Shown in pieces: positions 1,612 through 64,000 of a stretch of 64,000 nucleotides of DNA. Below the pieces are notes generated by a model, which saw nothing but the letters and a program-made list of their open reading frames with translations, was not told where the DNA came from and searched no databases. How positions within the stretch are numbered: the first letter of the stretch is position 1; each line of letters begins with the position of its first letter. The translations under genes and the position numbers were made by a program. Source of the DNA: an uncultured Alphaproteobacteria bacterium (lineage in GTDB: Bacteria > Pseudomonadota > Alphaproteobacteria > RF32 > CAG-239); NCBI GenBank assembly GCA_944393695.1, contig CALYAY010000002.1, positions 46,244-110,243 of the forward strand, read 5' to 3'.

Positions 1612-2283
1612 TCAGGCGATTCCCAATACACTGTCGATTTTCTTGCTGACCGCCTCAATTGTGCCCGTCCCGTCCACACAACGCAACAATCCCTTCTTTT
1701 CAAAATAAGGAATTGTCGGATAGGTCAGAGCCCGGTAATTAACCAGACGATTCTGCACCGTTGTCCGGTTATCATCCACCCGGCGGTAAAAATCCGTTCC
1801 GCCACAAACATCGCAAACCCCGTAAATCTTTGGTTTTTGAAACTTGTCATGATAACCGGCACCGCACTTCATGCAGGCATAACGCCCCAAGATACGTTCC
1901 ATAATAATCTCATCGGGAACCTGTATCTCAATCACCGCATCAAGACTGATCCCTCTCTCGGCCAGCATCTTGTCCAGAGCCTCGGCCTGAGGCAGCGTCC
2001 GGGGAAAACCGTCCAGAATAAAACCGTTCTGGCAGTCTTCCTCATCGATTCTCTTGGCCACCATGTCAATAATCATCTCATCGGTAGCAAACTCACCCCG
2101 GTCAAGCAGGGCTTTCATTTCCAGCCCCAACGGCGTTGCCTTGGCAGCTTCCGCCCGCAGCATTTCTCCGGTTGAAAGATGCGGAATAGATAATTTCTCT
2201 TCCAGGATTCGCGCCTGAGTTCCCTTGCCGCAGCCGGGAACCCCGGTAAAGATAATATGCCGTCCTCTGCCGTTCTTATCCAT
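1612..2283 (-). CDS. adk: adenylate kinase with zinc-binding lid
   Basis: 223 aa. P-loop GxPGxGKGT, lid with CMKCGAGYH...CDVCGG (CxxC..CxxC). The secY-adk-rpsM order is typical of alphaproteobacteria. Confidence 0.9.
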   Translation of the reverse strand: MDKNGRGRHIIFTGVPGCGKGTQARILEEKLSIPHLSTGEMLRAEAAKATPLGLEMKALLDRGEFATDEMIIDMVAKRIDEEDCQNGFILDGFPRTLPQAEALDKMLAERGISLDAVIEIQVPDEIIMERILGRYACMKCGAGYHDKFQKPKIYGVCDVCGGTDFYRRVDDNRTTVQNRLVNYRALTYPTIPYFEKKGLLRCVDGTGTIEAVSKKIDSVLGIA

Positions 2284-3635
2284 TAGCGTTTTTTCCCTTT
2301 GTTGGCCAGAGCTGCTTTTTTAATCAGCCCTTCATATTGATAAGCAATCAGATGCGACTGCAGTTGTCCGACAAAATCCATCGTCACCTGCACCACGATG
2401 AGCAGCGTCGTTCCGCCCAAGACAAACGGCACCGACAGCTTGGAAATCAGGATTTCCGGCAAAATGCACAAAGCCACCAGATAAACGGCCCCCACCACCG
2501 TCAGACGGGTAATGACATAATCCAGATATTCCGCCGTATTTTTTCCGGGACGGATACCGGCAATAAAACCGCCGTGTTTTTTCAGATTATCCGCCGTTTC
2601 TTCAGGATTAAACACCACCGCCGTATAAAAGAATGCAAAAAACGCGATTAAAAAGGCATACAGTGCCAGATACAACGGCTGCCCGTGTCCCAGCAGCTGG
2701 CTCAGAGTCTGCACCCATTCCGGCCCGTTTTCTGCCGACAAATTGGCAATCGTAATCGGCAACAGCAGCAGCGAGCTGGCAAAAATCGGCGGAATAACCC
2801 CCGTCGGATTAATTTTCAACGGCAAATGCGAACTTTCCGCCGCCGTCATCCTCATCCCCATCTGGCGTTTCGGATATTGAATAATAACTTTGCGCTGAGC
2901 TCTTTCAACAAAAACAATAACATAAATCAGCACCAGCACCATAACCATCAGCAGGGCAATCAACCCCAGCGACATTGAGCCGACGCGTCCCAGTTCAAAA
3001 GTCTGAGCCAGCGCCGTCGGAATATTGGCGATAATACCCACGGTAATGATTAAAGACGAACCGTTGCCCACGCCGCGCGAAGTAATCTGCTCACCCAGCC
3101 AGACGATAAACATCGTTCCGCCCACCAGCGAAACAATTGTCGTAAACTTAAACACAAATCCCGGATTCACTACTGCCGAGATTCCCGCGCTCCCGGTCAT
3201 GCTCTCCAGACCGACGGCAATACCGTAACCTTGCACAATTGTAATCAACACCGTCAGATAGCGCGTCATCTGGGTAATCTTGCGATGCCCGGCCTCACCT
3301 TCTTTTTTCAAAGCAGCCAACGACGGAACTACAGATTGTCCCAGCTGAATAATAATGGATGCCGAAATATAAGGCATAATGTTCAGAGCAAAAATGGTCA
3401 TACGTTCCAAAGCGCCGCCGGCGAACATATTAAACATTCCGAGGATTCCGCCGGAATTTCTTGCAAAAATGTCCGACAAAACATGCGGATCGATTCCCGG
3501 CAGCGGAACAAACGTCCCCAGACGGAAAACAATCAAAGCAAAAACCGTAAACCACAATCTCTTTTTCAGTTCTTCAGCTTTGCTGAAAGCCCCGAAATCC
3601 ATATTCGATGCCATTTTTTCGGCTAAAGATACCAT
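2283..3635 (-). CDS. secY: preprotein translocase subunit SecY
   Basis: Multi-TM protein with conserved SecY blocks. The ORF is open to 3668, but an AAGGA SD precedes Met-12 (MVSLAEKMASNMDFGAFSKAEELKKRLWF...), so the start is placed at 3635. Stop overlaps the adk start. Confidence 0.9.
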   Translation of the reverse strand: MVSLAEKMASNMDFGAFSKAEELKKRLWFTVFALIVFRLGTFVPLPGIDPHVLSDIFARNSGGILGMFNMFAGGALERMTIFALNIMPYISASIIIQLGQSVVPSLAALKKEGEAGHRKITQMTRYLTVLITIVQGYGIAVGLESMTGSAGISAVVNPGFVFKFTTIVSLVGGTMFIVWLGEQITSRGVGNGSSLIITVGIIANIPTALAQTFELGRVGSMSLGLIALLMVMVLVLIYVIVFVERAQRKVIIQYPKRQMGMRMTAAESSHLPLKINPTGVIPPIFASSLLLLPITIANLSAENGPEWVQTLSQLLGHGQPLYLALYAFLIAFFAFFYTAVVFNPEETADNLKKHGGFIAGIRPGKNTAEYLDYVITRLTVVGAVYLVALCILPEILISKLSVPFVLGGTTLLIVVQVTMDFVGQLQSHLIAYQYEGLIKKAALANKGKKR

Positions 3636-3821
3636 TTCTATATCCTTATTATTCAATTTAAAAAACATAATCCGGGCACAAAAACCCTTTAAGCTAAGAT
3701 ATTAATACACTAAAAATTTTTTAATTCAACCCTTTTAATAAGGCTTTGGCATAATTTCTTAATAAAAAACGGCGAAAGAGATTTCCCTTCCGCCTGACTG
3801 ACTTTTTCCAGCCGTCTAATT

Positions 3822-5813
3822 CTAAAACTCGATCACCGGCCGGACGTCATACTCTTTATCTTTCTGCGGATAATTGGTTAATCCGTATGTTCCGCCGAAA
3901 AACGACCTCCAGGCCCCCAGATCGGCCGTATATTCCGTTGACGTCCACAAGAAAGAATTACTCCCCAACTGCACACCACCGGCTCGTAAGAAACCGGCAT
4001 TAACAGCAGACATATTATTATTAATGCTGTACATAATTCCCGCCGCCGGCAGGCACCAGGCGCTCATTCCTCCGGCACTGTAACCGTCAGCCGCCCAGGC
4101 CGCCGGATAATGAAGATGATTTCCGGCATCAAGTATCTTATCCGTATTGCCGCAACTGTCAAAATCCCCGCTGGCCGCCGAAGCTGACCCGTATCCTGGT
4201 AAATCGCCGATATCTCCGTAATCACCCCACTGATATGCCCCAATAGACTTCAAAGCCATTGCCCAGCATATCTCTTTATCTCGACTCTTATATCTGTACA
4301 CCACAACGCCAACCGGAGTTTTTCCGGAAACTTTTTCTGTACCGCAACTTCCGTCGCTGAAAAAAATATCTCCGATTTGACAATTCGCCGTACACCCTTT
4401 GTCTTCCTGCACAACCACCTTTTCGCAAATTCCGTTTTTCCAGACATATCCCGAGGCGCAACGGCATGACTGATATTTTCCGTCGCAGGATGAGCCGGAA
4501 CCGCCGGTTTCGTTGGCACCGCTGCAAGTATATTTATATGAGGAATCGCAGGTGCAGGTTTGAGAACTTGCATTCCAGACATAGCCCGACTGACAGCCGT
4601 TTTTGCAGTATTTGTTGGAACATTCCTCTTTCTTACAGGTGTAAGGGGATGGACATGAATCCATGGAACATTCATTGGGACAAGGTTTGCAGTTGTCATA
4701 TTTAATTTCAGTTCCCGATTGACAGGTGTTTGCGCCGGCTTCGGGCCCCATGCTGCCGCAATCCATATATCCCTCACAGGGATTAGGTTTGATTTTGTAC
4801 TTGGTCTTGCCGTCGCAGTCCAGACAAGCCTCGCCGTCTTGTACATAGCCTTCGGGAATGGTCGTATAATCATATCCCGCACCGCAGGGTGTACATTCAC
4901 AGGAAGCATATTTTCCGTCGCAGGCCTCTCCCACTCCATGATAAGGAGGCTCGCAAGTGACGTAATCACTGGGGCAAAGGGCCCGACAATATTCGAAATA
5001 ACGATTATCATACGGGCAGAAATTAACCGCCTCATATCCTTCTGGACAGGAGGTTTTCGTGTATCCTTCTTCTTCGCAGCGTTTCTCGTCATCAAGTTCA
5101 TAATCATCACCGCCGCCGGGAGGCACCCCGCCATTATCCTCATCGGCATTATTCCCAACAAACTCATTCCCGGAACAGTTGGTTATATCCGTCACAAAAC
5201 ACGCCGCCGCAAGTTGGATAAGATTGTTGTTGTCTCCCTCACCCTGCCCCTCTCCCCTCAAGGAAGAGGTATTTCTTTCAATGTCATACTCCAACTTGAT
5301 TGGAGTATCCAGGTCAGATAAAGCAGCTGATTTATTCCACCTGGATCCTCGGGTTAAACCCGAGGATGACTGTTTTGTTTTTTCTTCCCTCCCTAAAGAT
5401 TTAGGGCTGGAGGCAGAAAATATCTCCGACGGAGATATTTTCAACGACAGGCGAGAGTTTGTTAACTCATAAGCTAGCGGCAGCGAAGCGAAATGAGCGT
5501 TACAAACCGAATGACCGCAGCGACTTAGTGTTGCCCTTCCGGCAACACTTACGGAGCCAGAGGTAAGGGAGGGTTTGAAACCCTCTCTGTCTCTCCCTGA
5601 GTTTTCAGGGAGAGTAAGTTCGGCAAAATCTTCAAGTGAAGACAAATGTCCGGCCGTGAGGTGTGAAGTGTGTGTAGAAACATGTGATTTAAGCAAAGCC
5701 GGACTTAATGACAAAGGCGTATCATCAGGATTAAAACCAGCGTAACACAAATCAGCTCCGGCAATGAAGGGCATGCACGAAACCGACAACATGAGAACAG
5801 TCTTATTCATCAT
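3822..5813 (-). CDS. Secreted Cys-rich protein with a DUF1566/Lcl-C-like C-terminal domain; its N-terminal linker is built from palindromic repeats
   Basis: The ORF is open to 5849, but its paralog at 61996 starts at the homologous MMN... and shares the upstream motif ATAAGATTCGTGAAGACAA, so the start is placed at 5813. Signal peptide, many Cys (CP.GY..C, CEPPY.GVGEAC.GKYASCE), C-terminal block WCLPAAG...WTST...VRPVIEF resembling DUF1566 (family name from memory). Inserted between secY and rplO. Confidence 0.7.
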   Translation of the reverse strand: MMNKTVLMLSVSCMPFIAGADLCYAGFNPDDTPLSLSPALLKSHVSTHTSHLTAGHLSSLEDFAELTLPENSGRDREGFKPSLTSGSVSVAGRATLSRCGHSVCNAHFASLPLAYELTNSRLSLKISPSEIFSASSPKSLGREEKTKQSSSGLTRGSRWNKSAALSDLDTPIKLEYDIERNTSSLRGEGQGEGDNNNLIQLAAACFVTDITNCSGNEFVGNNADEDNGGVPPGGGDDYELDDEKRCEEEGYTKTSCPEGYEAVNFCPYDNRYFEYCRALCPSDYVTCEPPYHGVGEACDGKYASCECTPCGAGYDYTTIPEGYVQDGEACLDCDGKTKYKIKPNPCEGYMDCGSMGPEAGANTCQSGTEIKYDNCKPCPNECSMDSCPSPYTCKKEECSNKYCKNGCQSGYVWNASSQTCTCDSSYKYTCSGANETGGSGSSCDGKYQSCRCASGYVWKNGICEKVVVQEDKGCTANCQIGDIFFSDGSCGTEKVSGKTPVGVVVYRYKSRDKEICWAMALKSIGAYQWGDYGDIGDLPGYGSASAASGDFDSCGNTDKILDAGNHLHYPAAWAADGYSAGGMSAWCLPAAGIMYSINNNMSAVNAGFLRAGGVQLGSNSFLWTSTEYTADLGAWRSFFGGTYGLTNYPQKDKEYDVRPVIEF
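5282..5640. repeat. Mosaic of short palindromic repeat units lying inside the 5' coding region of the 3822-5813 gene
   Basis: 5282-5371 is near-identical to 63121-63209, and 5387-5530 to 61491-61632. Hairpin units include GGATCCTCGGGTTAAACCCGAGGATG, CATACTCCAACTTGATTGGAGTATG, CCCTCCCTAAAGATTTAGGGCTGGAGG, GTTGCCGGAAGGGCAAC, GGGTTTCAAACCC, CTCCCTGAGTTTTCAGGGAG. Confidence 0.8.
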
Positions 5814-5839: not shown

Positions 5840-5858
5840 TTGTCTTCACGAATCTTAT
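5840..5858 (-). promoter_or_regulatory. Conserved upstream motif ATAAGATTCGTGAAGACAA shared by the two Cys-rich family genes (copy 1)
   Basis: Identical 19-mer about 25 nt upstream of the MMN start here and at 61956-61974. Confidence 0.45.
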
Positions 5859-5962
5859 AATAACAGAAAATTTGAGCGTTGTAAATCACTATTTTAATCT
5901 AAAGACCATAATTTAAACTAAAAATGAGGTTCCTTTTCGAAACCTCATTTTTTCTAAACATC

Positions 5963-6157
5963 CTAGTCCTCCAAATAGCGGAAATGCAATTTACCAATTC
6001 CCAGGCAAATCAAAGCAATCCATGCAAAAAGACCACCCATAAAAAATGCCCATTTAGCCACATCAAATTGACCTTGACATCCTGCCATCCAAAAGACCAA
6101 AACAGCAATTTCTGCAATAGTAACTCCTACCCAGAAAAAATTCTCACATTTTCTCAT
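5963..6157 (-). CDS. Small hypothetical membrane protein (2 predicted TM helices)
   Basis: 64-aa ORF with two hydrophobic stretches. No clear SD. Lies inside the secY|rplO insertion. Confidence 0.25.
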   Translation of the reverse strand: MRKCENFFWVGVTIAEIAVLVFWMAGCQGQFDVAKWAFFMGGLFAWIALICLGIGKLHFRYLED

Positions 6158-6290: not shown

Positions 6291-6752
6291 TTACGCAATA
6301 GTAACCTTGCCGCCGGCTTTTTCAACCGCGGCAATCGCTGCCTTGGAAGCCGAATTAACGGTAATGTTAATACTTGCCGTCACCGCACCGCGGGCCAGCA
6401 AACGAACACCATCCAGCTTCTTGCTGATAAGGTTCGATTTCAACAAATTTTCAACCGTAATCTCATTCGCAGACAACTTGCCGGCATCAATAGCCTTCTG
6501 AATGGTATCCAGATTAACAACGGCAAAAGTCTTGGCGAAATGATTTTTGAAACCGCGTTTCGGCAGTCTGCGGTACAAAGGCATCTGCCCGCCTTCAAAG
6601 GCGTTAATGGCAACACCGGAACGAGCTTTCTGGCCTTTCTGTCCCTTACCGGCAGTTTTTCCTGAACCGCTGCCGATACCGCGGGCCACACGCTTACGGC
6701 TCTTTCTGGCGCCTTCATTATCTCTGATTTCATTAAGTTTCATTGTGTTCAC
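6291..6752 (-). CDS. rplO: 50S ribosomal protein L15
   Basis: 153 aa, Gly/Lys-rich N-terminus ([20 protein letters not shown]) typical of L15. Confidence 0.95.
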
Positions 6753-6841
6753 CTAATTTTCTTATTATTAAACTCAGCATAAAATTTCAAAACCCGGTTC
6801 GGAGGATGTCTCTGCCTGAACAGAACATCCTCCTTTTCCGA

Positions 6842-7024
6842 TTATTCCGAAACCTTAACCAGATGACTGACTTTTTTAATCATCCCGCGGATAGCCGGAG
6901 TATCTTCAAGCTCTCTGGTCTTGCCCACTTTATTCAGCCCCAGACCGATAAGCGTAGCTTTCTGGCTGTCCGGACGACCGATAGTGCTTCCCGTCTGAGT
7001 AACTTTTATTGTTTTCTTAGCCAT
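6842..7024 (-). CDS. rpmD: 50S ribosomal protein L30
   Basis: 60 aa, [30 protein letters not shown]. Confidence 0.9.
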
Positions 7025-7027
7025 CGG

Positions 7028-7591
7028 TTAAGCCTCCTCTTTTTCCATCTTGATGTTTGAAGAGTTTTCACGGCGGCTCACAATATCGCCAACTTTCTTA
7101 CCGCGCTTGGCAGCAACCATTCTTGGCGAATTGATCGACAGCAGGGCGTCAAAGGTCGCTTTAATCATGTTATAGGGATTATTTGATCCCAATGATTTCG
7201 CAACCACGTCCTGAACACCGAGAACTTCAAAAATTGCACGCATCGGGCCGCCGGCAATAACACCGGTACCGGCAGGAGCAGTTCTGAGAATAACTTTTCC
7301 CGCACCGAAACTGCCTTTCACATCATGGTGCAGAGTTCTTCCCTCACGCAGAGGAATGCGAACCATGTTTTTCTTGGCCTCATTGGTAGCCTTGGTAATA
7401 GCATCGGGAACTTCGGTTGCTTTTCCGGAACCATAGCCGACCCGGCCTTTCTGGTCACCGACCACAACAACCGCAGCAAACGACATATTACGTCCGCCTT
7501 TAACGGTCTTGGCCACACGGTTAATATGAACCAGTCTCTCGACCAATTCTTCTTTCTTTTCTGTTTTACGACGATCTACAGCTTGTGCCAT
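7028..7591 (-). CDS. rpsE: 30S ribosomal protein S5
   Basis: 187 aa, [29 protein letters not shown]. Confidence 0.95.
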
Positions 7592-43259: not shown

Positions 43260-43817
43260 TTATTCTCCCTCCAGATACATCACCGGCCGGACATGACATA
43301 ATTCTCCGCCGCCGTAAATGTCCGAGGAAGCGTTGTCAAAACCAATAATCCATGGTGCAATACCCGGTCCTCTTTTTCCGCTTGCAGTATCGGCCCAATA
43401 ACCTTTATGGTCTGTTTTTATAGCCACCAAGGGTTTCCCGCCGACACTTTCCAGCTTTTGATTCAGAGCCTCAAAATAAGGTGCAACCTTTTGCTCCAAA
43501 CCGGCACGTGGCAAGGTAGTTGCTCTTCCTGCAATTTCAACCTTACGGCAATAATCACAGGCCCGGTCAAAATTCATCAGAGTATCAGCATCCTTCAGTG
43601 CAAAAACCACCAGGCCGCAGCGCACTCCTTCAATTTTTCCGTTCTCTCCGCGATAAGGCTCAATCAATTTTCCGAGGTCAACATTTTTTTCTTCGTTTTT
43701 GGGTTCTTTGAACTGTACTTTTGTCACAGTTTTCTTTCCGAACTTTTCAAACAATCTGTCGGCAAACACTCCGGCAACAAAAGAGACAAAGCTGGTAAAC
43801 AAAATTTTTTTATCCAT
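43260..43817 (-). CDS. Secreted/anchored single-domain DUF1566/Lcl-C-like protein
   Basis: 185 aa. N-terminal hydrophobic anchor. C-terminus TLPRAGLEQ...YWADT...APWIIGFDN...CHVRPV is homologous to the VRPV(I/L)EF-ending domains at 3822 and 49130. Lies on the opposite strand between ftsA and ftsZ. Confidence 0.55.
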   Translation of the reverse strand: MDKKILFTSFVSFVAGVFADRLFEKFGKKTVTKVQFKEPKNEEKNVDLGKLIEPYRGENGKIEGVRCGLVVFALKDADTLMNFDRACDYCRKVEIAGRATTLPRAGLEQKVAPYFEALNQKLESVGGKPLVAIKTDHKGYWADTASGKRGPGIAPWIIGFDNASSDIYGGGELCHVRPVMYLEGE

Positions 43818-48729: not shown

Positions 48730-49076
48730 CACAAGCCCGGCCTCCGGGCTTTTTTCTTTCCTCTCATCCCCATCCTCTTTTCCTCACCCTCCTTTCTTCA
48801 TGCCACCCTCAGTCTCTTCTCTTTTGTCATCCTCGGGTTAAACCCGAGGATCCAAGTAAAAAAATCATCCTTTTATCCTCCCCTAAAACATTAGCCCCCT
48901 AACTTATTCTCCCCCTATAGTTATAGGGGGAATTAGAGGGGGTATGGCAATGTCATCCCTCGTTCAGCGTCAGTCTGAACGTCAGGGGATCTTCCTTATT
49001 GCCCTCTCCCCTTTCAAAAGGGGAGCCGGTGGGGTCAAATATCAGCCGCTTTTCTCACCTCTCCTCTCAAGGGTGA
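48730..49076. repeat. Intergenic cluster of the same palindromic repeat family upstream of family copy B
   Basis: 48826-48853 is the CCTCGGG..CCCGAGG hairpin. 48951-49047 is near-identical to 61693-61788 (hairpins CGTTCAGCGTCAGTCTGAACG and CTCCCCTTTCAAAAGGGGAG). Also CCCCCTATAGTTATAGGGGG and CACCTCTCCTCTCAAGGGTGAGG. Confidence 0.8.
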
Positions 49077-49129: not shown

Positions 49130-49945
49130 ATGAAGAAGATATTATTGGCGAGTGTCGGAATTATAATAAGCACAGGAACAACATATGCCGCGTGTATCCC
49201 GACGCCGAGTTGTTCAAGTTTGGGATATGAAAGCTCCTCATCCTGCGAGGGCGGGCTCAAATGTCCGTTCGGCAATGCCTGGAACTGCACTTTGGTAAAC
49301 AAAATTACTGAAATCACTACCGAGATAACCGAAATCAAAAAAGTGATTGAAGAAGGCGGTGTCGGAGGTGGTAATAAAAACTGCCAGATTGGAAACATCT
49401 ATTATTCTGACAAAACCTGTTCTGTATCTTTGGACAGTTCCAAAACCCCGATTGGCGTGGTGGTTTATGTCGATGGCCAGGGACATGGGCAAGTGATGGC
49501 GTTGAAGTCAATAGGTAAGAATCAATGGGGATCAACGAATGTTGATATTCCGACCTTGACTAACTTTAGCAGTGATGAAAGTGCGAGTTACGATTTGAGC
49601 AGCTGTGCTAATACCCAGAAGATTATGACAGCCGGTGATAAGAGTACTTATCCGGCGGCTTGGGCGGCACACGAGTATAAAACCGAGGGAACGGAAGCCG
49701 GTGACTGGTGCCTGCCAGCAGCCGGTGTATTTACTTCATACTACAATAATCAACAGTTGGTTAATATCGGTATGACGAACGCCGGAGGCACTCAGATAGG
49801 TGAGTATACCTATATCTGGTCGTCTTCCGAATGCGGTAGCGGCAACGTGTGGACCTCGGATTTCCGCCACGACTACGGGGTGAGCGACGGCTATGGCAGT
49901 AAGCTTAGCAGAGGCAACGAGGTTCGACCGGTGCTGGAATTTTAA
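49130..49945 (+). CDS. Secreted DUF1566/Lcl-C-like protein (family copy B)
   Basis: 271 aa. Signal peptide, short Cys-rich N-terminus, C-terminus DWCLPAAGVF...IWSSSE...EVRPVLEF. 5' region and upstream 53 bp nearly identical to the gene at 63449. Confidence 0.7.
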   Translation: MKKILLASVGIIISTGTTYAACIPTPSCSSLGYESSSSCEGGLKCPFGNAWNCTLVNKITEITTEITEIKKVIEEGGVGGGNKNCQIGNIYYSDKTCSVSLDSSKTPIGVVVYVDGQGHGQVMALKSIGKNQWGSTNVDIPTLTNFSSDESASYDLSSCANTQKIMTAGDKSTYPAAWAAHEYKTEGTEAGDWCLPAAGVFTSYYNNQQLVNIGMTNAGGTQIGEYTYIWSSSECGSGNVWTSDFRHDYGVSDGYGSKLSRGNEVRPVLEF

Positions 49946-57121: not shown

Positions 57122-57292
57122 AAATAATATGAATAAAACGTAAAACATAAAAATTAACAATCTCGTATTTATGGATACTACTCTACAAAATTTTTGTCAA
57201 CACATATTTTTAAATTTATTTAATTTCTTGCCGATTGCAGCAAGAAACGGCCAAAGAATTTGCCAAAACAAATAAGATTTTTAATAAAAACA

Positions 57293-57343
57293 AAAAAACC
57301 GCCCTTTCGGACGGCCTTTTTAATTGGAGCGGGCAATGGGATT
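57293..57343 (-). repeat. Direct-repeat copy 1: tRNA-Gly 3' terminal 20 nt plus its downstream terminator
   Basis: AAAAAAACCGCCCTTTCGGACGGCCTTTTTAATTGGAGCGGGCAATGGGATT is identical to 57470-57520. Confidence 0.8.
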
Positions 57344-57469
57344 GGCTTCGCTTCGTTTCGCCGCACGGGCGCTCATCAGCTTCGCTGACCGCGATACTCC
57401 CGTCTCGCTTTCGCTGGTTGTCGGACCACTCCTTCGTGGGTCCAAATCCGTTGCCGCTTTACCAATAAA

Positions 57470-57520
57470 AAAAACCGCCCTTTCGGACGGCCTTTTTAAT
57501 TGGAGCGGGCAATGGGATTC
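57470..57520 (-). repeat. Direct-repeat copy 2: native tRNA-Gly 3' end and terminator
   Basis: See copy 1. The hairpin GGCCGTCCGAAAGGGCGG plus T-run acts as a terminator on the minus strand. Confidence 0.8.
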
Positions 57521-57575
57521 GGACCCACGACATCAACCTTGGCAAGGTTGCGCTCTACCCCTGAGCTATACCCGC
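57501..57575 (-). tRNA. tRNA-Gly (anticodon GCC)
   Basis: Minus strand reads GCGGGTATAGCTCAGGGGTAGAGCGCAACCTTGCCAAGGTTGATGTCGTGGGTCCGAATCCCATTGCCCGCTCCA. Confidence 0.88.
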
Positions 57576-60599: not shown

Positions 60600-61274
60600 C
60601 TAAAGAAAAGCCATAACCAGCGCCCCGCCGGCAATAGCCGGGCCAAACGCCCCGTCTCTTTTTTTCCGGCACAAAGCATACAGACCGAACAAAACGCAGG
60701 CCAGCAAAATAACCGCCGGCAGTTTTTCCGGCCCCAGCCATGCCCCCGTTGCCGCCAGATACTTAATATCTCCGCCGCCGAACACGTCTTTGTTTTTCCA
60801 CACCAGAAGCAAACTGGCCACCACCGGCAGCACATAGCCGGCCGCTGCCCCGATAAAACTTTCTCCCGGCCCTGCCCAGCTGCCGCCAAACACCGCATAG
60901 CCAAAACCGGCAATCAACAGCGGCACCGTAATAATATCCGGCAAAATCTGCCACCGCAGATCCACCTCCGCCAACAGCAGCGCCGACCACACAAACAACA
61001 ACTGCCAGCCGATATGAGCTTCACCGTATTTCCAAAACATCGCATAAGAAAGTCCGGCTGCAGCCAAGGCATACAACAGCTTTCTGCCCCGATATTCCCG
61101 AACCTTTTGTTGATATTTTGGATTCTCCTTTGCCTTTTTACGGGACACTCCGGGCAACGGTTTAAAAATACGGTACAAAGCATAAGCCATTGTCGCCGGC
61201 ATAAACTTTCCGAACCGCCGCGCCGCATACGGAACAAACCAACCGAAAACCAATCCCGCCAAGGCATAAATCAT
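60600..61274 (-). CDS. A24 family prepilin peptidase (TadV/CpaA-like)
   Basis: 224 aa multi-TM protein with the conserved active-site region GGGDIKYLAA. Confidence 0.75.
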   Translation of the reverse strand: MIYALAGLVFGWFVPYAARRFGKFMPATMAYALYRIFKPLPGVSRKKAKENPKYQQKVREYRGRKLLYALAAAGLSYAMFWKYGEAHIGWQLLFVWSALLLAEVDLRWQILPDIITVPLLIAGFGYAVFGGSWAGPGESFIGAAAGYVLPVVASLLLVWKNKDVFGGGDIKYLAATGAWLGPEKLPAVILLACVLFGLYALCRKKRDGAFGPAIAGGALVMAFL

Positions 61275-61289
61275 TATACAACTCCTGTT

Positions 61290-61955
61290 TTTCCTCTTAA
61301 AGCTTACCCGCCAACTATAAAAAAAAGATTAATCTGCTGCAAAATTTCCTGTTTCTGATTTTTCTCCCTGAAAACTCATCCTCTCTCCCGTCATCCCCAC
61401 CCTTTCCTTCTTTATGTCATCCTCGGGTTTAACCCGAGGATCCAGGTCAAACCTATTATCCTCCCCCCTAAAACCTTTTCTCCATATTTCCCCTCCCTAA
61501 AGTTTTAGGGCTGGAGGCAGAAAATATCTCCGGTGGAGATATTTTCAACGACAGGCGAGAGTTTGTTAGCTCATGAGCTAGCGACAGCAACGCGAAATGA
61601 GCGTTACAAACCGAGTGACCGCAGCGACTTAGCAAACGCAGTGAGCTTAGGAGCCAGAAGGTCGGGAAGGGTTTCACATTCAAATAAAAACTGTCATCCC
61701 TCGTTCAGCGCCAGTCTGAACGTCAGGGGATCTTCTTTATTGCCCTCTCCCCTTTCAAAAGGGGAGCCGGTGGGGTTAAATATTAGCCTTATATCCTCTC
61801 CCTCACCCACGTCACTCCGTTCCGCGACCTCTCCCCTCCCTAAAGACTTAGGGAGGGGTTGGGGAGGGTTTCATTCATACTCAAATAAAACCCCGTCCAT
61901 TTTCCCGTCATTATATTTAAAATATACATTGATTATTTGTAAAATATCTGCTAAT
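61290..61955. repeat. Palindromic repeat cluster (with a relic gene 5' fragment) upstream of the 61996 gene
   Basis: Contains copies of units seen at 5344-5371, 5387-5530 and 48951-49047, plus CCCTCCCTAAAGACTTAGGGAGGGGTTGGGGAGGG. The minus-strand ORF at 61468-61683 is the translated repeat. Confidence 0.8.
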
Positions 61956-61974
61956 ATAAGATTCGTGAAGACAA
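61956..61974 (+). promoter_or_regulatory. Conserved upstream motif ATAAGATTCGTGAAGACAA (copy 2)
   Basis: See 5840-5858. Confidence 0.45.
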
Positions 61975-61995: not shown

Positions 61996-63057
61996 ATGAT
62001 GAACAGTAACAAAGCATTATTGCTTATTTCAGCATCAGGGCTGCTGCTTATGCCCTGCGGCATATCTTTGGCAGCTTATTTGCCTCAGTCATCTCTTCCG
62101 GATGCGATTACATCTGTCTATAACACACACTTCACACACACCTCTCACCCGGGGGAAGTGTTGTTGTCTTCTGCCTTTTATCCTCTCCCTGAAAACTCAG
62201 GGAGCTCTCTATTCTACCCCCTCCCTAAAAACTTAGGGAGGGGTTGGGGAGGGTTTCACAACACCACCCTTATCCAACTCGCTGCGACTTGTTTTGTGAC
62301 CGATACCTCGGCCTGTTCGGGCAACGAGTTTTCCGGCAATAATGCCGATGATGACGGACATGGTGCTCCCGGCGGTCCCGGAGACGGTGACGATTATGAG
62401 CTTGATAATAAAGAGCGTTGCAATAAAGAGGGCTATTATCTGACTTCATGCCCGGACGGACAAGAGGGTTCAGGTTTCTGCCCCTATGACAACGGTTATT
62501 TCGAAAAATGTGTTTCGTCCTGTCCTTCAAATTATGTGACCTGTGAACCGCCTTACTATGGCGTGGGTGAGGCTTGTAACGGTAAATATGCCTCTTGTGA
62601 AAAAGACACTGAGCGCGCCTGTCAGGAATTAAACCCCGGTTATGTCGATGAATGCGGCACCGGACAACAATTAAGCGATGACAGATGTTCTTATGATAGC
62701 TCTTACGGCACCTGTTGTAATACTTGTGAGGGTTACGATAACACCACTATTTCCGAGGGCTATGTGCAAGACGGCGAGGCCTGCACCGGCTGCGACGGTC
62801 AGGAACATTATAAGATAAAACCCAACCCGTGTGACGGATTTATGGACTGCGGCTCCATGGGCGGCGAAGCCGGAGCGAAGACCTGCCTGTCGGGGACAAC
62901 CACCATGTACGACAATTGTAAGGCCTGTCCCAACTTGGGAGAATACACTACCTGTCCGAGCTGTACCATATGCCAGTATGAAGAATGCTCCGGTCTGTGG
63001 TATGCCACCGGCTGTGCCACGAATTGTACGGATTATTGTGACTTCTGCGGCGGGTGA
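61996..63057 (+). CDS. Secreted Cys-rich protein homologous to the N-terminal two-thirds of the 3822-5813 protein; lacks the DUF1566-like domain
   Basis: 353 aa. Signal peptide. Shared blocks THTSH, LPENSG, LIQLAATCFVTD, CSGNEF, DDYELD, FCPYDN.YFE.C, CEPPYYGVGEAC.GKYASCE. Same upstream motif ATAAGATTCGTGAAGACAA. A palindromic repeat is translated in-frame as PLPKNLGRGWGGFH. Confidence 0.65.
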   Translation: MMNSNKALLLISASGLLLMPCGISLAAYLPQSSLPDAITSVYNTHFTHTSHPGEVLLSSAFYPLPENSGSSLFYPLPKNLGRGWGGFHNTTLIQLAATCFVTDTSACSGNEFSGNNADDDGHGAPGGPGDGDDYELDNKERCNKEGYYLTSCPDGQEGSGFCPYDNGYFEKCVSSCPSNYVTCEPPYYGVGEACNGKYASCEKDTERACQELNPGYVDECGTGQQLSDDRCSYDSSYGTCCNTCEGYDNTTISEGYVQDGEACTGCDGQEHYKIKPNPCDGFMDCGSMGGEAGAKTCLSGTTTMYDNCKACPNLGEYTTCPSCTICQYEECSGLWYATGCATNCTDYCDFCGG

Positions 63058-63394
63058 GGGGATTGCTGCTTATTTCCTCGCCCTTGAGGGGAGAGGTAAG
63101 GAAGGAGGAAAAGTAAACACTGTCATACTCCAACTTGATTGGAGTATCCAGGTTAGATAAAGCAGCTGTTTCATTCCACCTGGATCCTCGGGGCAAGCCC
63201 GAGGATGACAAAGAGAGAGGGTGAGGATGGCAGAGAAAGAAAGGAGCCGGGAATGACATTGTCCCTTTTACCTCTCCCTTGAGGGGAGAGGTCGCGAAAC
63301 AGAGTGACGCGGGTGAGGGTGAAGAAAAAGCCCCCCCCTCCAACTCCCCCTAAGATTTTAGGGGGAGGGGGTAGAGCCCTAAGGTTTTAGGGAG
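63058..63394. repeat. Palindromic repeat cluster between the 61996 gene and family copy C
   Basis: CCTCGCCCTTGAGGGGAGAGG, the 63121-63209 composite unit, CCTCTCCCTTGAGGGGAGAGG, CCCCCTAAGATTTTAGGGGGAGGGGG. Confidence 0.8.
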
Positions 63395-63448: not shown

Positions 63449-64000
63449 ATGAGAAAGATATTATTAGCGGGTGTAGGAATTATAATAAGTACAGGAACAG
63501 CATATGCAGCCTGTATCCCGACGCCGAGTTGTTCAAGTTTAGGCTATGAAAGTTCCTCATCATGTGAAGGCGGGATTAAATGCCCCTTCGGCAATGCCTG
63601 GAATTGCACTTTGGTAAACAAAATTACTGAAATCACTACCGAGATAACCGAAATCAAAAAAGTGATTGAAGAAGGCGGCATTGGAGGAAAAGGCGACACT
63701 TCAAACTGCGTTGTCGGCTCAATTTTCTACTCTGATTGGACTTGTTCATACGGAAGTGTTATTGCAACCAAAGCACCTATCGGTGTCGTGATTTACAGCG
63801 ATAATGCCGGACATGGACAGGTTATGGCTCTGAATAGTATCGGTACTTATAAGTGGGGTGGATATGGCACGGATATTCCAACGCTTCAGAACTTTACATC
63901 AGCTTCGGTTGCTTCTCAGGATTTGGCAAGCTGTAAAAATACAGCTAAAATTATTGCAGCCGGTGATAAGAATAAATATCCAGCAGCTTGGGCAGCACAC
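63449..64000 (+). CDS. Secreted DUF1566/Lcl-C-like protein (family copy C, 3' partial at the window end)
   Basis: N-terminal ~80 aa and upstream 53 bp nearly identical to the gene at 49130. Diverges after EEGG. PAAWAAH at the window end matches the family. Confidence 0.65.
   Translation, partial: MRKILLAGVGIIISTGTAYAACIPTPSCSSLGYESSSSCEGGIKCPFGNAWNCTLVNKITEITTEITEIKKVIEEGGIGGKGDTSNCVVGSIFYSDWTCSYGSVIATKAPIGVVIYSDNAGHGQVMALNSIGTYKWGGYGTDIPTLQNFTSASVASQDLASCKNTAKIIAAGDKNKYPAAWAAH

Follow-up and report, generated by a model that had tools for sequence, protein, structure and literature searches.

We analyzed a window of 64,000 nucleotides (nt), meaning the whole stretch of DNA considered here, from an uncultured Alphaproteobacteria bacterium (contig CALYAY010000002.1, positions 46,244 to 110,243 of the forward strand), which carries several genes of a dispersed family of predicted exported, modular proteins. 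Its members in the window are genes A, B, C and D (Table 1). Gene A encodes, in order, a predicted signal peptide, a leader, a Cys-rich region that we call the stalk and a C-terminal module (C module) that we call the head; gene B carries the stalk without the head, and genes C and D carry the head without the stalk. The product of gene A is identical to the database protein P0001, an alternative upstream GTG at position 5849 would extend it to 675 amino acids (aa), and its N-terminus with the signal peptide is also present in many homologues. Gene D, which is cut by the end of the window, is complete with 273 aa at positions 6454-7275 of a longer copy of the same contig (L005), where rpoC comes next. 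A preliminary description, made from the sequence alone, had proposed that the 3822-5813 open reading frame (ORF) joins a Cys-rich and a DUF1566-like module, that the Cys-rich module stands alone at 61996-63057, and that a repeat cluster and a separate head gene follow it. Each of these points held, with the correction that gene A is located on the minus strand.

Table 1. Features of the family genes in the 64-kb window.
Feature	Position	Strand	Description
Gene A, fused form	3822..5813	-	663 aa from ATG 5813; signal peptide, repeat-laden leader, Cys-rich stalk and DUF1566-like head
Gene A, signal peptide (aa 1-26)	5736..5813	-	MMNKTVLMLSVSCMPFIAGADLCYA; predicted type I Sec, without lipobox; read from sequence
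Gene A, leader (aa 27-197)	5223..5735	-	THTSH motif, then ~330 nt of in-frame palindromic repeats
Repeats in gene A leader	5279-5528, 5593-5612		Window repeat search
Gene A, Cys-rich stalk (aa 198-476)	4386..5222	-	33 Cys, pI 4.3; 20-sequence alignment
Gene A, C module (aa 477-663)	3825..4385	-	DUF1566/Lcl_C-like; C-type-lectin-like fold, with an additional beta subdomain on its N-terminal side
19-nt motif upstream of gene A	5841..5859	-	TATAAGATTCGTGAAGACA; overlaps promoter-like site 5885-5857
Repeat cluster upstream of gene C	48822..49047		Window repeat search
Gene C	49130..49945	+	271 aa; architecture as gene D; C module 49379-49942
Repeat cluster upstream of gene B	61409..61880		Further repeats in B leader, 62185-62258
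19-nt motif upstream of gene B	61955..61973	+	TATAAGATTCGTGAAGACA
Gene B	61996..63057	+	353 aa; signal peptide, leader with in-frame repeats 62185-62258, stalk only (from 62269); ends ...CATNCTDYCDFCGG
Repeat cluster filling B-D spacer	63118..63394		Spacer of 391 nt here; 21-23 nt or overlap in other lineages
Gene D, cut by window end	63449..64000	+	Signal peptide, 'C..PSC..LGY..C..KCP..NC' motif, linker, C module
Gene E	43260..43817	-	ORF of 185 aa

Genes A and B share 52% identity over 290 aa of Cys-rich sequence (E=1e-78), the last 187 aa of A share 45% identity with residues 84-271 of C (E=3e-43), and genes C and D are 74% identical. Upstream of A and B the similarity covers 58 nt (inverted-repeat pair I3 in the window repeat search). 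The 19-nt motif that the preliminary description had noticed there occurs in exactly 2 copies in the 64 kb, 25-30 nt upstream of the A and B start codons, with 0.02 expected by chance. Given these three protein similarities and a motif found only twice, the central observation is genuine and far exceeds what chance would produce. Part of the resemblance does come from repeats: LPENSG, one of the six blocks listed as conserved, is a translated palindrome, and much of the leader of A is likewise repeat-derived. That repeat elements could be the sole cause of the similarity between loci is nonetheless refuted, since they stop before aa 198 of A and the A-B and A-C alignments both involve only coding sequence that is free of repeats and contains invariant Cys. 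The five other blocks (LIQLAA.CFVTD, CSGNEF, DDYELD, FCPYDN.YFE.C and CEPPY.GVGEAC.GKYASCE) represent true coding similarity. The signal peptide regions of A and B, described as the same, resemble each other only loosely.

The nature of the head was assessed from structure models and profile searches. Using hmmscan, the gathering cut-off of PF07603 (34.9 bits) was reached by none of A, C, D and the isolated module. The AlphaFold (AF2) model of the C module of A had a mean predicted local distance difference test score (pLDDT) of 96.5 and a predicted template modelling score (pTM) of 0.91. A Foldseek search against the PDB yielded 2 significant matches, BACOVA_04982 (4eps; E=1.7e-5, TM 0.71) and the C-terminal domain of Lcl, the collagen-like protein and adhesin of Legionella pneumophila (8q4e; E=1.8e-4), and the C-type-lectin-like alpha/beta core of the Lcl domain is present in the module. 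An alignment of 50 diverse copies of the C module (A1) was also used as a search profile against 1.84 billion representatives, yielding 4701 matched proteins, 253 of them at E<=1e-30. Nine long matches were scanned against PF07603, and six of them (P0241, P0244, P0250, P0261, P0318 and P0381; A1 E<=1e-39) passed with 36.7-113.8 bits. For P0241 and P0250, the region matched by Pfam lies inside that matched by A1 and corresponds to the last ~118 aa of the module; in P0244, P0261, P0318 and P0381 the best listed A1 and PF07603 stretches are different copies of the module. Scores below the threshold were obtained for the closer relative P0211 (28 bits) and for P0156 (12.5 bits). The C module is thus transitively homologous to accepted members of PF07603. 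Against PDB sequences, the sole match of a C-module profile was 4eps (E=0.065). We conclude that the C module, which carries conserved cysteines, is a divergent and longer form of the DUF1566/Lcl_C domain; the additional beta subdomain at its N-terminal end is also present in 4eps.

The stalk of A contains 33 Cys in 279 aa, of which more than 20 are invariant in an alignment of 20 sequences (A3), and it includes sub-repeats (profile positions ~180-232 and ~213-266) whose copy number differs among homologues. A Pfam scan of the A and B stalks gave no match, and relatives gave sub-threshold matches to RANK_CRD_2 and EB-module. The structure model consists of short beta hairpins, with pLDDT 80-90 over residues ~90-150 and ~190-270 (69 overall), and its weak Foldseek neighbours were Pfs25 (epidermal growth factor (EGF)-like), TNFR1 and DcR3, at E about 0.02-0.5. 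We treat the stalk as a new disulfide-rich module, which according to the model would form an elongated array of small hairpin units. Two candidate lipoboxes were rejected. The sequence 'LIQLAAAC' has no n- or h-region in front of it, and the lipoprotein reading of C and D from 'AYAAC' fails because the distance between the end of the signal peptide and the first Cys varies among relatives (AQSINC, AADVQC) and because the residue at -3 is not one expected of a lipobox.

In a collection of 5.8 billion proteins, A had 217 and C had 890 homologues at cluster level, which come from NCBI or ENA metagenome assemblies. The census of architectures used two profiles and covered the best 120 homologues of A and the best 120 of C. 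None of the 240 homologues listed has a name, and 239 have no precomputed Pfam domain. Searches for the exact sequences of P0099 and P0077 found neither on record. Among the best 120 homologues of A, 72 consist of a stalk with one head, 4 of a stalk with two heads, 40 of a stalk without this head, and 4 are other; the stalk-and-head arrangement thus accounts for 76 of 120. The 40 proteins without this head include ~12 short B-like ones, which end in ...CATNCxDYCDFCGG or in a 'C..LGY..C..KCPYD..C' motif, and ~25 with other tails of 90-350 aa belonging to several recurring kinds. Pfam gave no significant match on ten homologues with such alternative C-termini. Some of these tails (P0022, P0107) look like further divergent lectin-like heads, the tail of P0022 matching A1 with E=6.6e-14. 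On the side of C, 117 of the best 120 homologues consist of a signal peptide and one head. Proteins starting with 'MMNKT..' occupy differing loci: between rplO and secY (A), beside OmpH and LPG_synthase (P0013), between comEC and kdsA (P0022) and after alaS (P0055). In a species-level genome collection, relatives were found in three metagenome-assembled genomes (MAGs), all from uncultured Alphaproteobacteria or Pseudomonadota. The modular, multi-copy character proposed in the preliminary description, with fused and split forms, is borne out by these counts: this is a dispersed multi-copy family assembled from exchangeable modules.

The split arrangement, in which a stalk-only gene is followed by a head gene with its own signal peptide and the 'LGY' Cys motif, was found at four different chromosomal loci or lineages. 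Besides B and D, which lie between a Peptidase_A24 gene and rpoC with a spacer of 391 nt, it is present after alaS (L010; 23-nt spacer), beside rpmG (L039; 21-nt spacer with a ribosome-binding site) and in a distant MAG (L002), with overlapping ORFs and repeat-free leaders. No fused version of the B locus was found among the related loci examined, and the arrangement of B and D is not the product of a recent fission specific to one strain. In the fused proteins P0070, P0081 and P0091 the 'LGY' motif is internal, between stalk and head, which places the break point of the split form at the module boundary. The long B-D spacer, packed with repeat elements, would suit a different reading, namely that an A-like gene broke recently and is decaying as B and D, which would leave the split without functional meaning, and frameshifted members of the family do exist: P0041 and the next ORF, of 120 aa, make up a broken P0013-type gene. 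But gene D begins with its own complete signal peptide, and the C-terminus of B (...CATNCxDYCDFCGG) is kept across three kinds of N-terminus, in 6 or more protein clusters (it is found in P0077, P0086, P0095, P0099 and P0100 as well). The pair also recurs at four loci, with spacers that are otherwise of 21-23 nt or replaced by an overlap, with a ribosome-binding site, and the head-only architecture predominates among the C homologues as counted above. Decay is largely refuted by these observations and we hold it to be highly improbable. We read the split form as an old, maintained alternative architecture, with fission and fusion both possible as its direction. The frameshifted copy itself lies at L007 4001-5520, where P0041 (386 aa) and the 120-aa ORF overlap; it reflects either a mistake in assembly or a true pseudogene.

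The repeats near the family genes comprise several kinds of short hairpin-forming elements (z=-3.5 for the hairpins), which within the window are confined to four clusters by family genes. At related loci (L009 2651-3281 and L010 2837-3299) they are again located only just upstream or in the leader of family genes, and no copy of the palindromic elements was seen in the flanking housekeeping DNA of the window and the related loci. Rfam gave no match at the repeat elements. LPENSG results from translating the 20-nt palindrome CTCCCTGAAAACTCAGGGAG, located at 5593-5612 and 62185-62204, whose relatives are found at 8 positions across the window. The orthologues of A vary in which complete elements they carry: P0015 has a short leader, and P0003 and P0002 have extra elements. 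P0001 has an additional insert of 51 aa that corresponds to a 142-nt element also present between genes at 61491-61632; this element is free of stops in only one of its six frames, which is the frame used in A. The repeats are thus multi-copy hairpins within an intact ORF, read in a stop-free frame and present or absent between orthologues, as expected of in-frame palindromic elements. No Met and no second signal peptide is found between the repeats and the stalk of A, so a functional product needs the repeats to be translated, and the N-terminal third of A is thereby hypervariable. In the distant relative from L002 the leader of ~40 aa is free of repeats, which indicates that the insertions are secondary.

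Another leader feature, the conserved THTSH motif, is encoded by a CA-rich low-complexity stretch (..ACACACACTTCACAC..) at 5655-5690 in A and 62119-62150 in B, with 'THTHL' in L002; it may bind metal, serve in sorting or be a tract prone to slippage. One 25-nt hairpin, CATCCTCGGGTTWAACCCGAGGATC, the core of one repeat element, was also found in 27 JGI metagenome contigs (L011-L037) with 37-72% GC and no family genes, usually flanked by GT...(ATGAC) and often beside the similar hairpins GTCATTCTCGGCC.. and GGTCGGGCTTGACCCGGCC. This hairpin looks like a widespread short palindromic element common to distant bacteria. Since it occurs in unrelated contigs devoid of the family, its core is generic and says nothing on the association of the repeats with the family.

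In paralogues at different loci, the identity of the 5' parts (0.86-0.96) exceeds that of the cores (0.78-0.90) only modestly, and we do not claim gene conversion on so weak a signal. A broader scheme is conceivable, in which the conserved 5' cassette (promoter motif, signal peptide and THTSH leader) and the palindromic clusters would serve as a recombination substrate that swaps stalks and heads among scattered loci, resulting in repeat-mediated surface variation of a host-associated alphaproteobacterium; translated repeats would lengthen and vary the leader, and split pairs would assemble heteromeric stalk-head complexes. We consider this speculative scheme decidedly unlikely. If true, it would amount to a repeat-mediated surface-variation system in an uncultured host-associated alphaproteobacterium.

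The kind of domain found in the heads (DUF1566) and one PHROG match (E=7e-9; function unassigned in PHROG) lend some support to an origin from a phage or a diversity-generating retroelement (DGR). The proteins would then serve in receptor binding, with the heads as hypervariable targets or tail-fibre tips and not as chromosomal adhesins. The copies, however, stand singly among housekeeping genes: rplO/secY, an SH3-domain-like gene (by eye)/GNAT, Peptidase_A24/rpoC, alaS, kdsA and rpmG. A repeat search over the whole window yielded no template-repeat partner for the 3' ends of the heads (3822-3950, 49800-49945 and the end of D), a tblastn search of the gene C protein against 50,697 phage records gave no match, and B and C have no PHROG match. 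These last three results led us to rule out the DGR and phage readings for this window, and we regard such an origin of the proteins as very unlikely.

Our preferred interpretation, which we consider probable, is that these genes belong to an exported, disulfide-rich modular family restricted to uncultured Alphaproteobacteria, characterized by a lectin-like head, module exchange, a stable two-gene form and in-frame repeats in the leader. Judging from n, h and c regions, AxA-like cleavage sites and the lack of a lipobox, a type I signal peptide would direct each protein through Sec. A short, probably disordered leader would come next, and the ~280-aa acidic Cys-rich region would fold in the oxidising periplasm into an elongated string of disulfide-knotted beta-hairpin units, as the model and the invariant Cys suggest in part. 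The head is most likely a ligand-binding domain (adhesive or recognition), by analogy with Lcl, leptospiral DUF1566 proteins and the DUF1566 targets of DGRs; as the module is acidic, its ligand is probably other than that of Lcl. Diversification would proceed by module exchange, the same stalk being joined to one or two copies of this head, to any of several unrelated heads or to no head at all, and the head also occurring alone behind its own signal peptide. In this lineage, palindromic elements have accumulated in 5' regions, leaders and spacers, and they are carried in frame through the leader.

Several points weigh against this interpretation. Signal peptides were judged by eye, and the family proteins show no recognisable signal of surface sorting, be it an outer-membrane anchor, a lipobox, an autotransporter or another known type; they may be surface-exposed, released or periplasmic. 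The function proposed for the family is read from sequence, models and analogy. The stalk model has an overall pTM of 0.34, a moderate confidence only, and its Foldseek search returned no significant neighbour (best E=0.024, probability 0.18). Pfam and NCBIfam hidden Markov models (HMMs) gave no match of any kind, DUF1566/Lcl_C included, in window proteins A-E, even at E<=10, so the link to DUF1566 had to come from structure and the transitive profile search; the preliminary guess of a DUF1566/Lcl module is correct by fold (8q4e, as above) and by distant homology, but not by a direct HMM match in the window proteins. Taken as a whole, the C modules of A and C are negatively charged (pI 4.7), and a direct reading of the head sequence showed none of the EPN/QPD/WND carbohydrate/Ca2+ motifs of C-type lectins, so neither the glycan-binding mode of Lcl nor that of classical lectins can be assumed. 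The term 'adhesin- or lectin-like' used in the preliminary description thus suits the fold, but the head has neither the canonical lectin motifs nor the basic surface seen in Lcl, and we infer adhesion from the fold. Finally, B and D are probably a bicistronic pair whose products act together, an association that comes from gene order only.

Some of the same points suit an exported modular family that is not adhesive, for example a structural component of the periplasm or envelope, a secreted scaffold for effectors or toxins whose C-terminal payloads are interchangeable, or a protein that binds bacterial and not host surfaces. In favour of this, the proteins lack a recognised surface anchor, their heads are acidic and devoid of lectin motifs, and the unrelated tails carried on the same stalk by ~25 of the best 120 A homologues form a pattern typical of polymorphic effector families. 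Yet no toxin or enzyme family was found by Pfam in the ten alternative tails scanned, the nearest characterised relatives of the head bind ligands, and no immunity-like small gene lies consistently next to family genes at the loci examined. We hold a non-adhesive role to be rather unlikely, and retain the ligand-binding family described above.

The neighbourhood of the genes adds some context. Gene A sits between rplO (6291-6752) and secY (2283-3668), together with a 64-aa hydrophobic ORF on the minus strand (5963-6157). The genes rplO and secY are neighbours in the spc ribosomal-protein operon of most bacteria. Consensus matches, to be taken as such only, comprise terminator-like hairpins at 6271-6248 (after rplO) and 5952-5920 (after the small ORF) and a promoter-like site at 5885-5857, and gene A appears to be its own transcription unit. 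The housekeeping genes of the window are alphaproteobacteria-like. Upstream of gene B lies a divergent prepilin peptidase gene (60600-61274, minus strand; Pfam Peptidase_A24 in L005), a hint of type II secretion or type IV pilus-like machinery in this organism. Lcl is among the proteins secreted by the type II route. Elsewhere in the window, a perfect 52-nt direct repeat (57292-57343 and 57468-57519, 176 nt apart) covers the 3' end of tRNA-Gly(GCC) (57501-57575, minus strand) and its terminator-like hairpin, and resembles a scar left at the tRNA by integration or excision.

Two further genes with a DUF1566 module had been proposed, at 49130 and 43260. The first is gene C, but the second, gene E, could not be demonstrated to be a member. 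BLASTP gave E=1.1, and a search with the C-module profile (hmmsearch) gave E=0.2, the top score among non-member ORFs of the window. An hhalign comparison with the C module was weak (probability 44%), aligning a pattern LP.AG...W...VRPV in the C-terminal half. A homologue search for gene E gave 3 uninformative matches, and 99% identical copies are present on 83 contigs. Gene E is an orphan ORF between ftsA and ftsZ, on the opposite strand.

These genes provide candidate recognition or adhesion proteins from uncultured Alphaproteobacteria without known surface biology, and a natural example of the same stalk-and-head protein existing as a single chain and as a conserved two-gene pair. The PF07603 model misses a whole sub-family of ~4,700 representatives at 50% identity with a high-confidence structural match, and the extended 187-aa module, in common with 4EPS, could improve annotation. 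The stalk is a bacterial disulfide-rich repeat without a described relative, and the in-frame palindromic elements make a second alphaproteobacterial case of repeats tolerated in coding sequence. Current understanding is not overturned: a known design, an exported stalk with a DUF1566-type head, is extended with a novel stalk, two stable forms and repeat-invaded leaders.

A close parallel in design is Lcl, whose DUF1566-containing C-terminal domain is the glycosaminoglycan (GAG)-binding head of a trimer on a collagen-like stalk; this head binds sulphated GAGs through a strongly basic upper surface and has no disulfides (PMC11162425). In Lcl (8q4e, PF07603) the stalk is a collagen-like triple helix, whereas the stalk of the present family is a Cys-rich beta-hairpin array; no collagen-like GXY repeats were seen in A-D by direct reading, and Pfam gave no collagen match. 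The head described here adds an N-terminal beta subdomain of ~70-85 aa and conserved cysteines, and by overall charge it is acidic (pI 4.7) instead of offering a basic GAG-binding face. The Bacteroides ovatus 'fimbrial protein' BACOVA_04982 (4eps) shares 16% identity with the head and has fimbrillin-like N-terminal domains in place of a Cys-rich stalk. In the Bdellovibrio mosaic adhesive fibre tip Bd2740, the C-terminal domain (8oks) is 7% identical, and the Bdellovibrio fibres are trimeric coiled-coil or beta-helical, not Cys-rich, with stalks showing no homology to the one described here. As for the stalk, EGF-like and TNFR Cys-rich domains are similar to it as elongated series of small disulfide-bonded hairpins, an analogy only, with no significant profile or structural match.

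A literature search also found leptospiral DUF1566 proteins studied for interaction with host components, and DUF1566 is the commonest domain of DGR variable proteins in human microbiomes (PMC4159848). The same kind of domain thus serves as a diversifiable ligand-binding head in gut microbes, but no template repeat or reverse transcriptase was seen in the window, and the diversity of the present family comes from paralogy and module exchange, not from mutagenic retrohoming. For the leaders, the relevant comparison is with Rickettsia. Short palindromic repeats inserted in frame in protein-coding genes were reportedly described there by Ogata et al. in 2000. By that description the two cases are alike, both being short multi-copy hairpins that leave the frame of an ORF intact in an alphaproteobacterium; here, in contrast, the elements occur only in the leader, which separates the signal peptide from the first domain, and beside the genes of a single family, and they are of several kinds, nested in one another.

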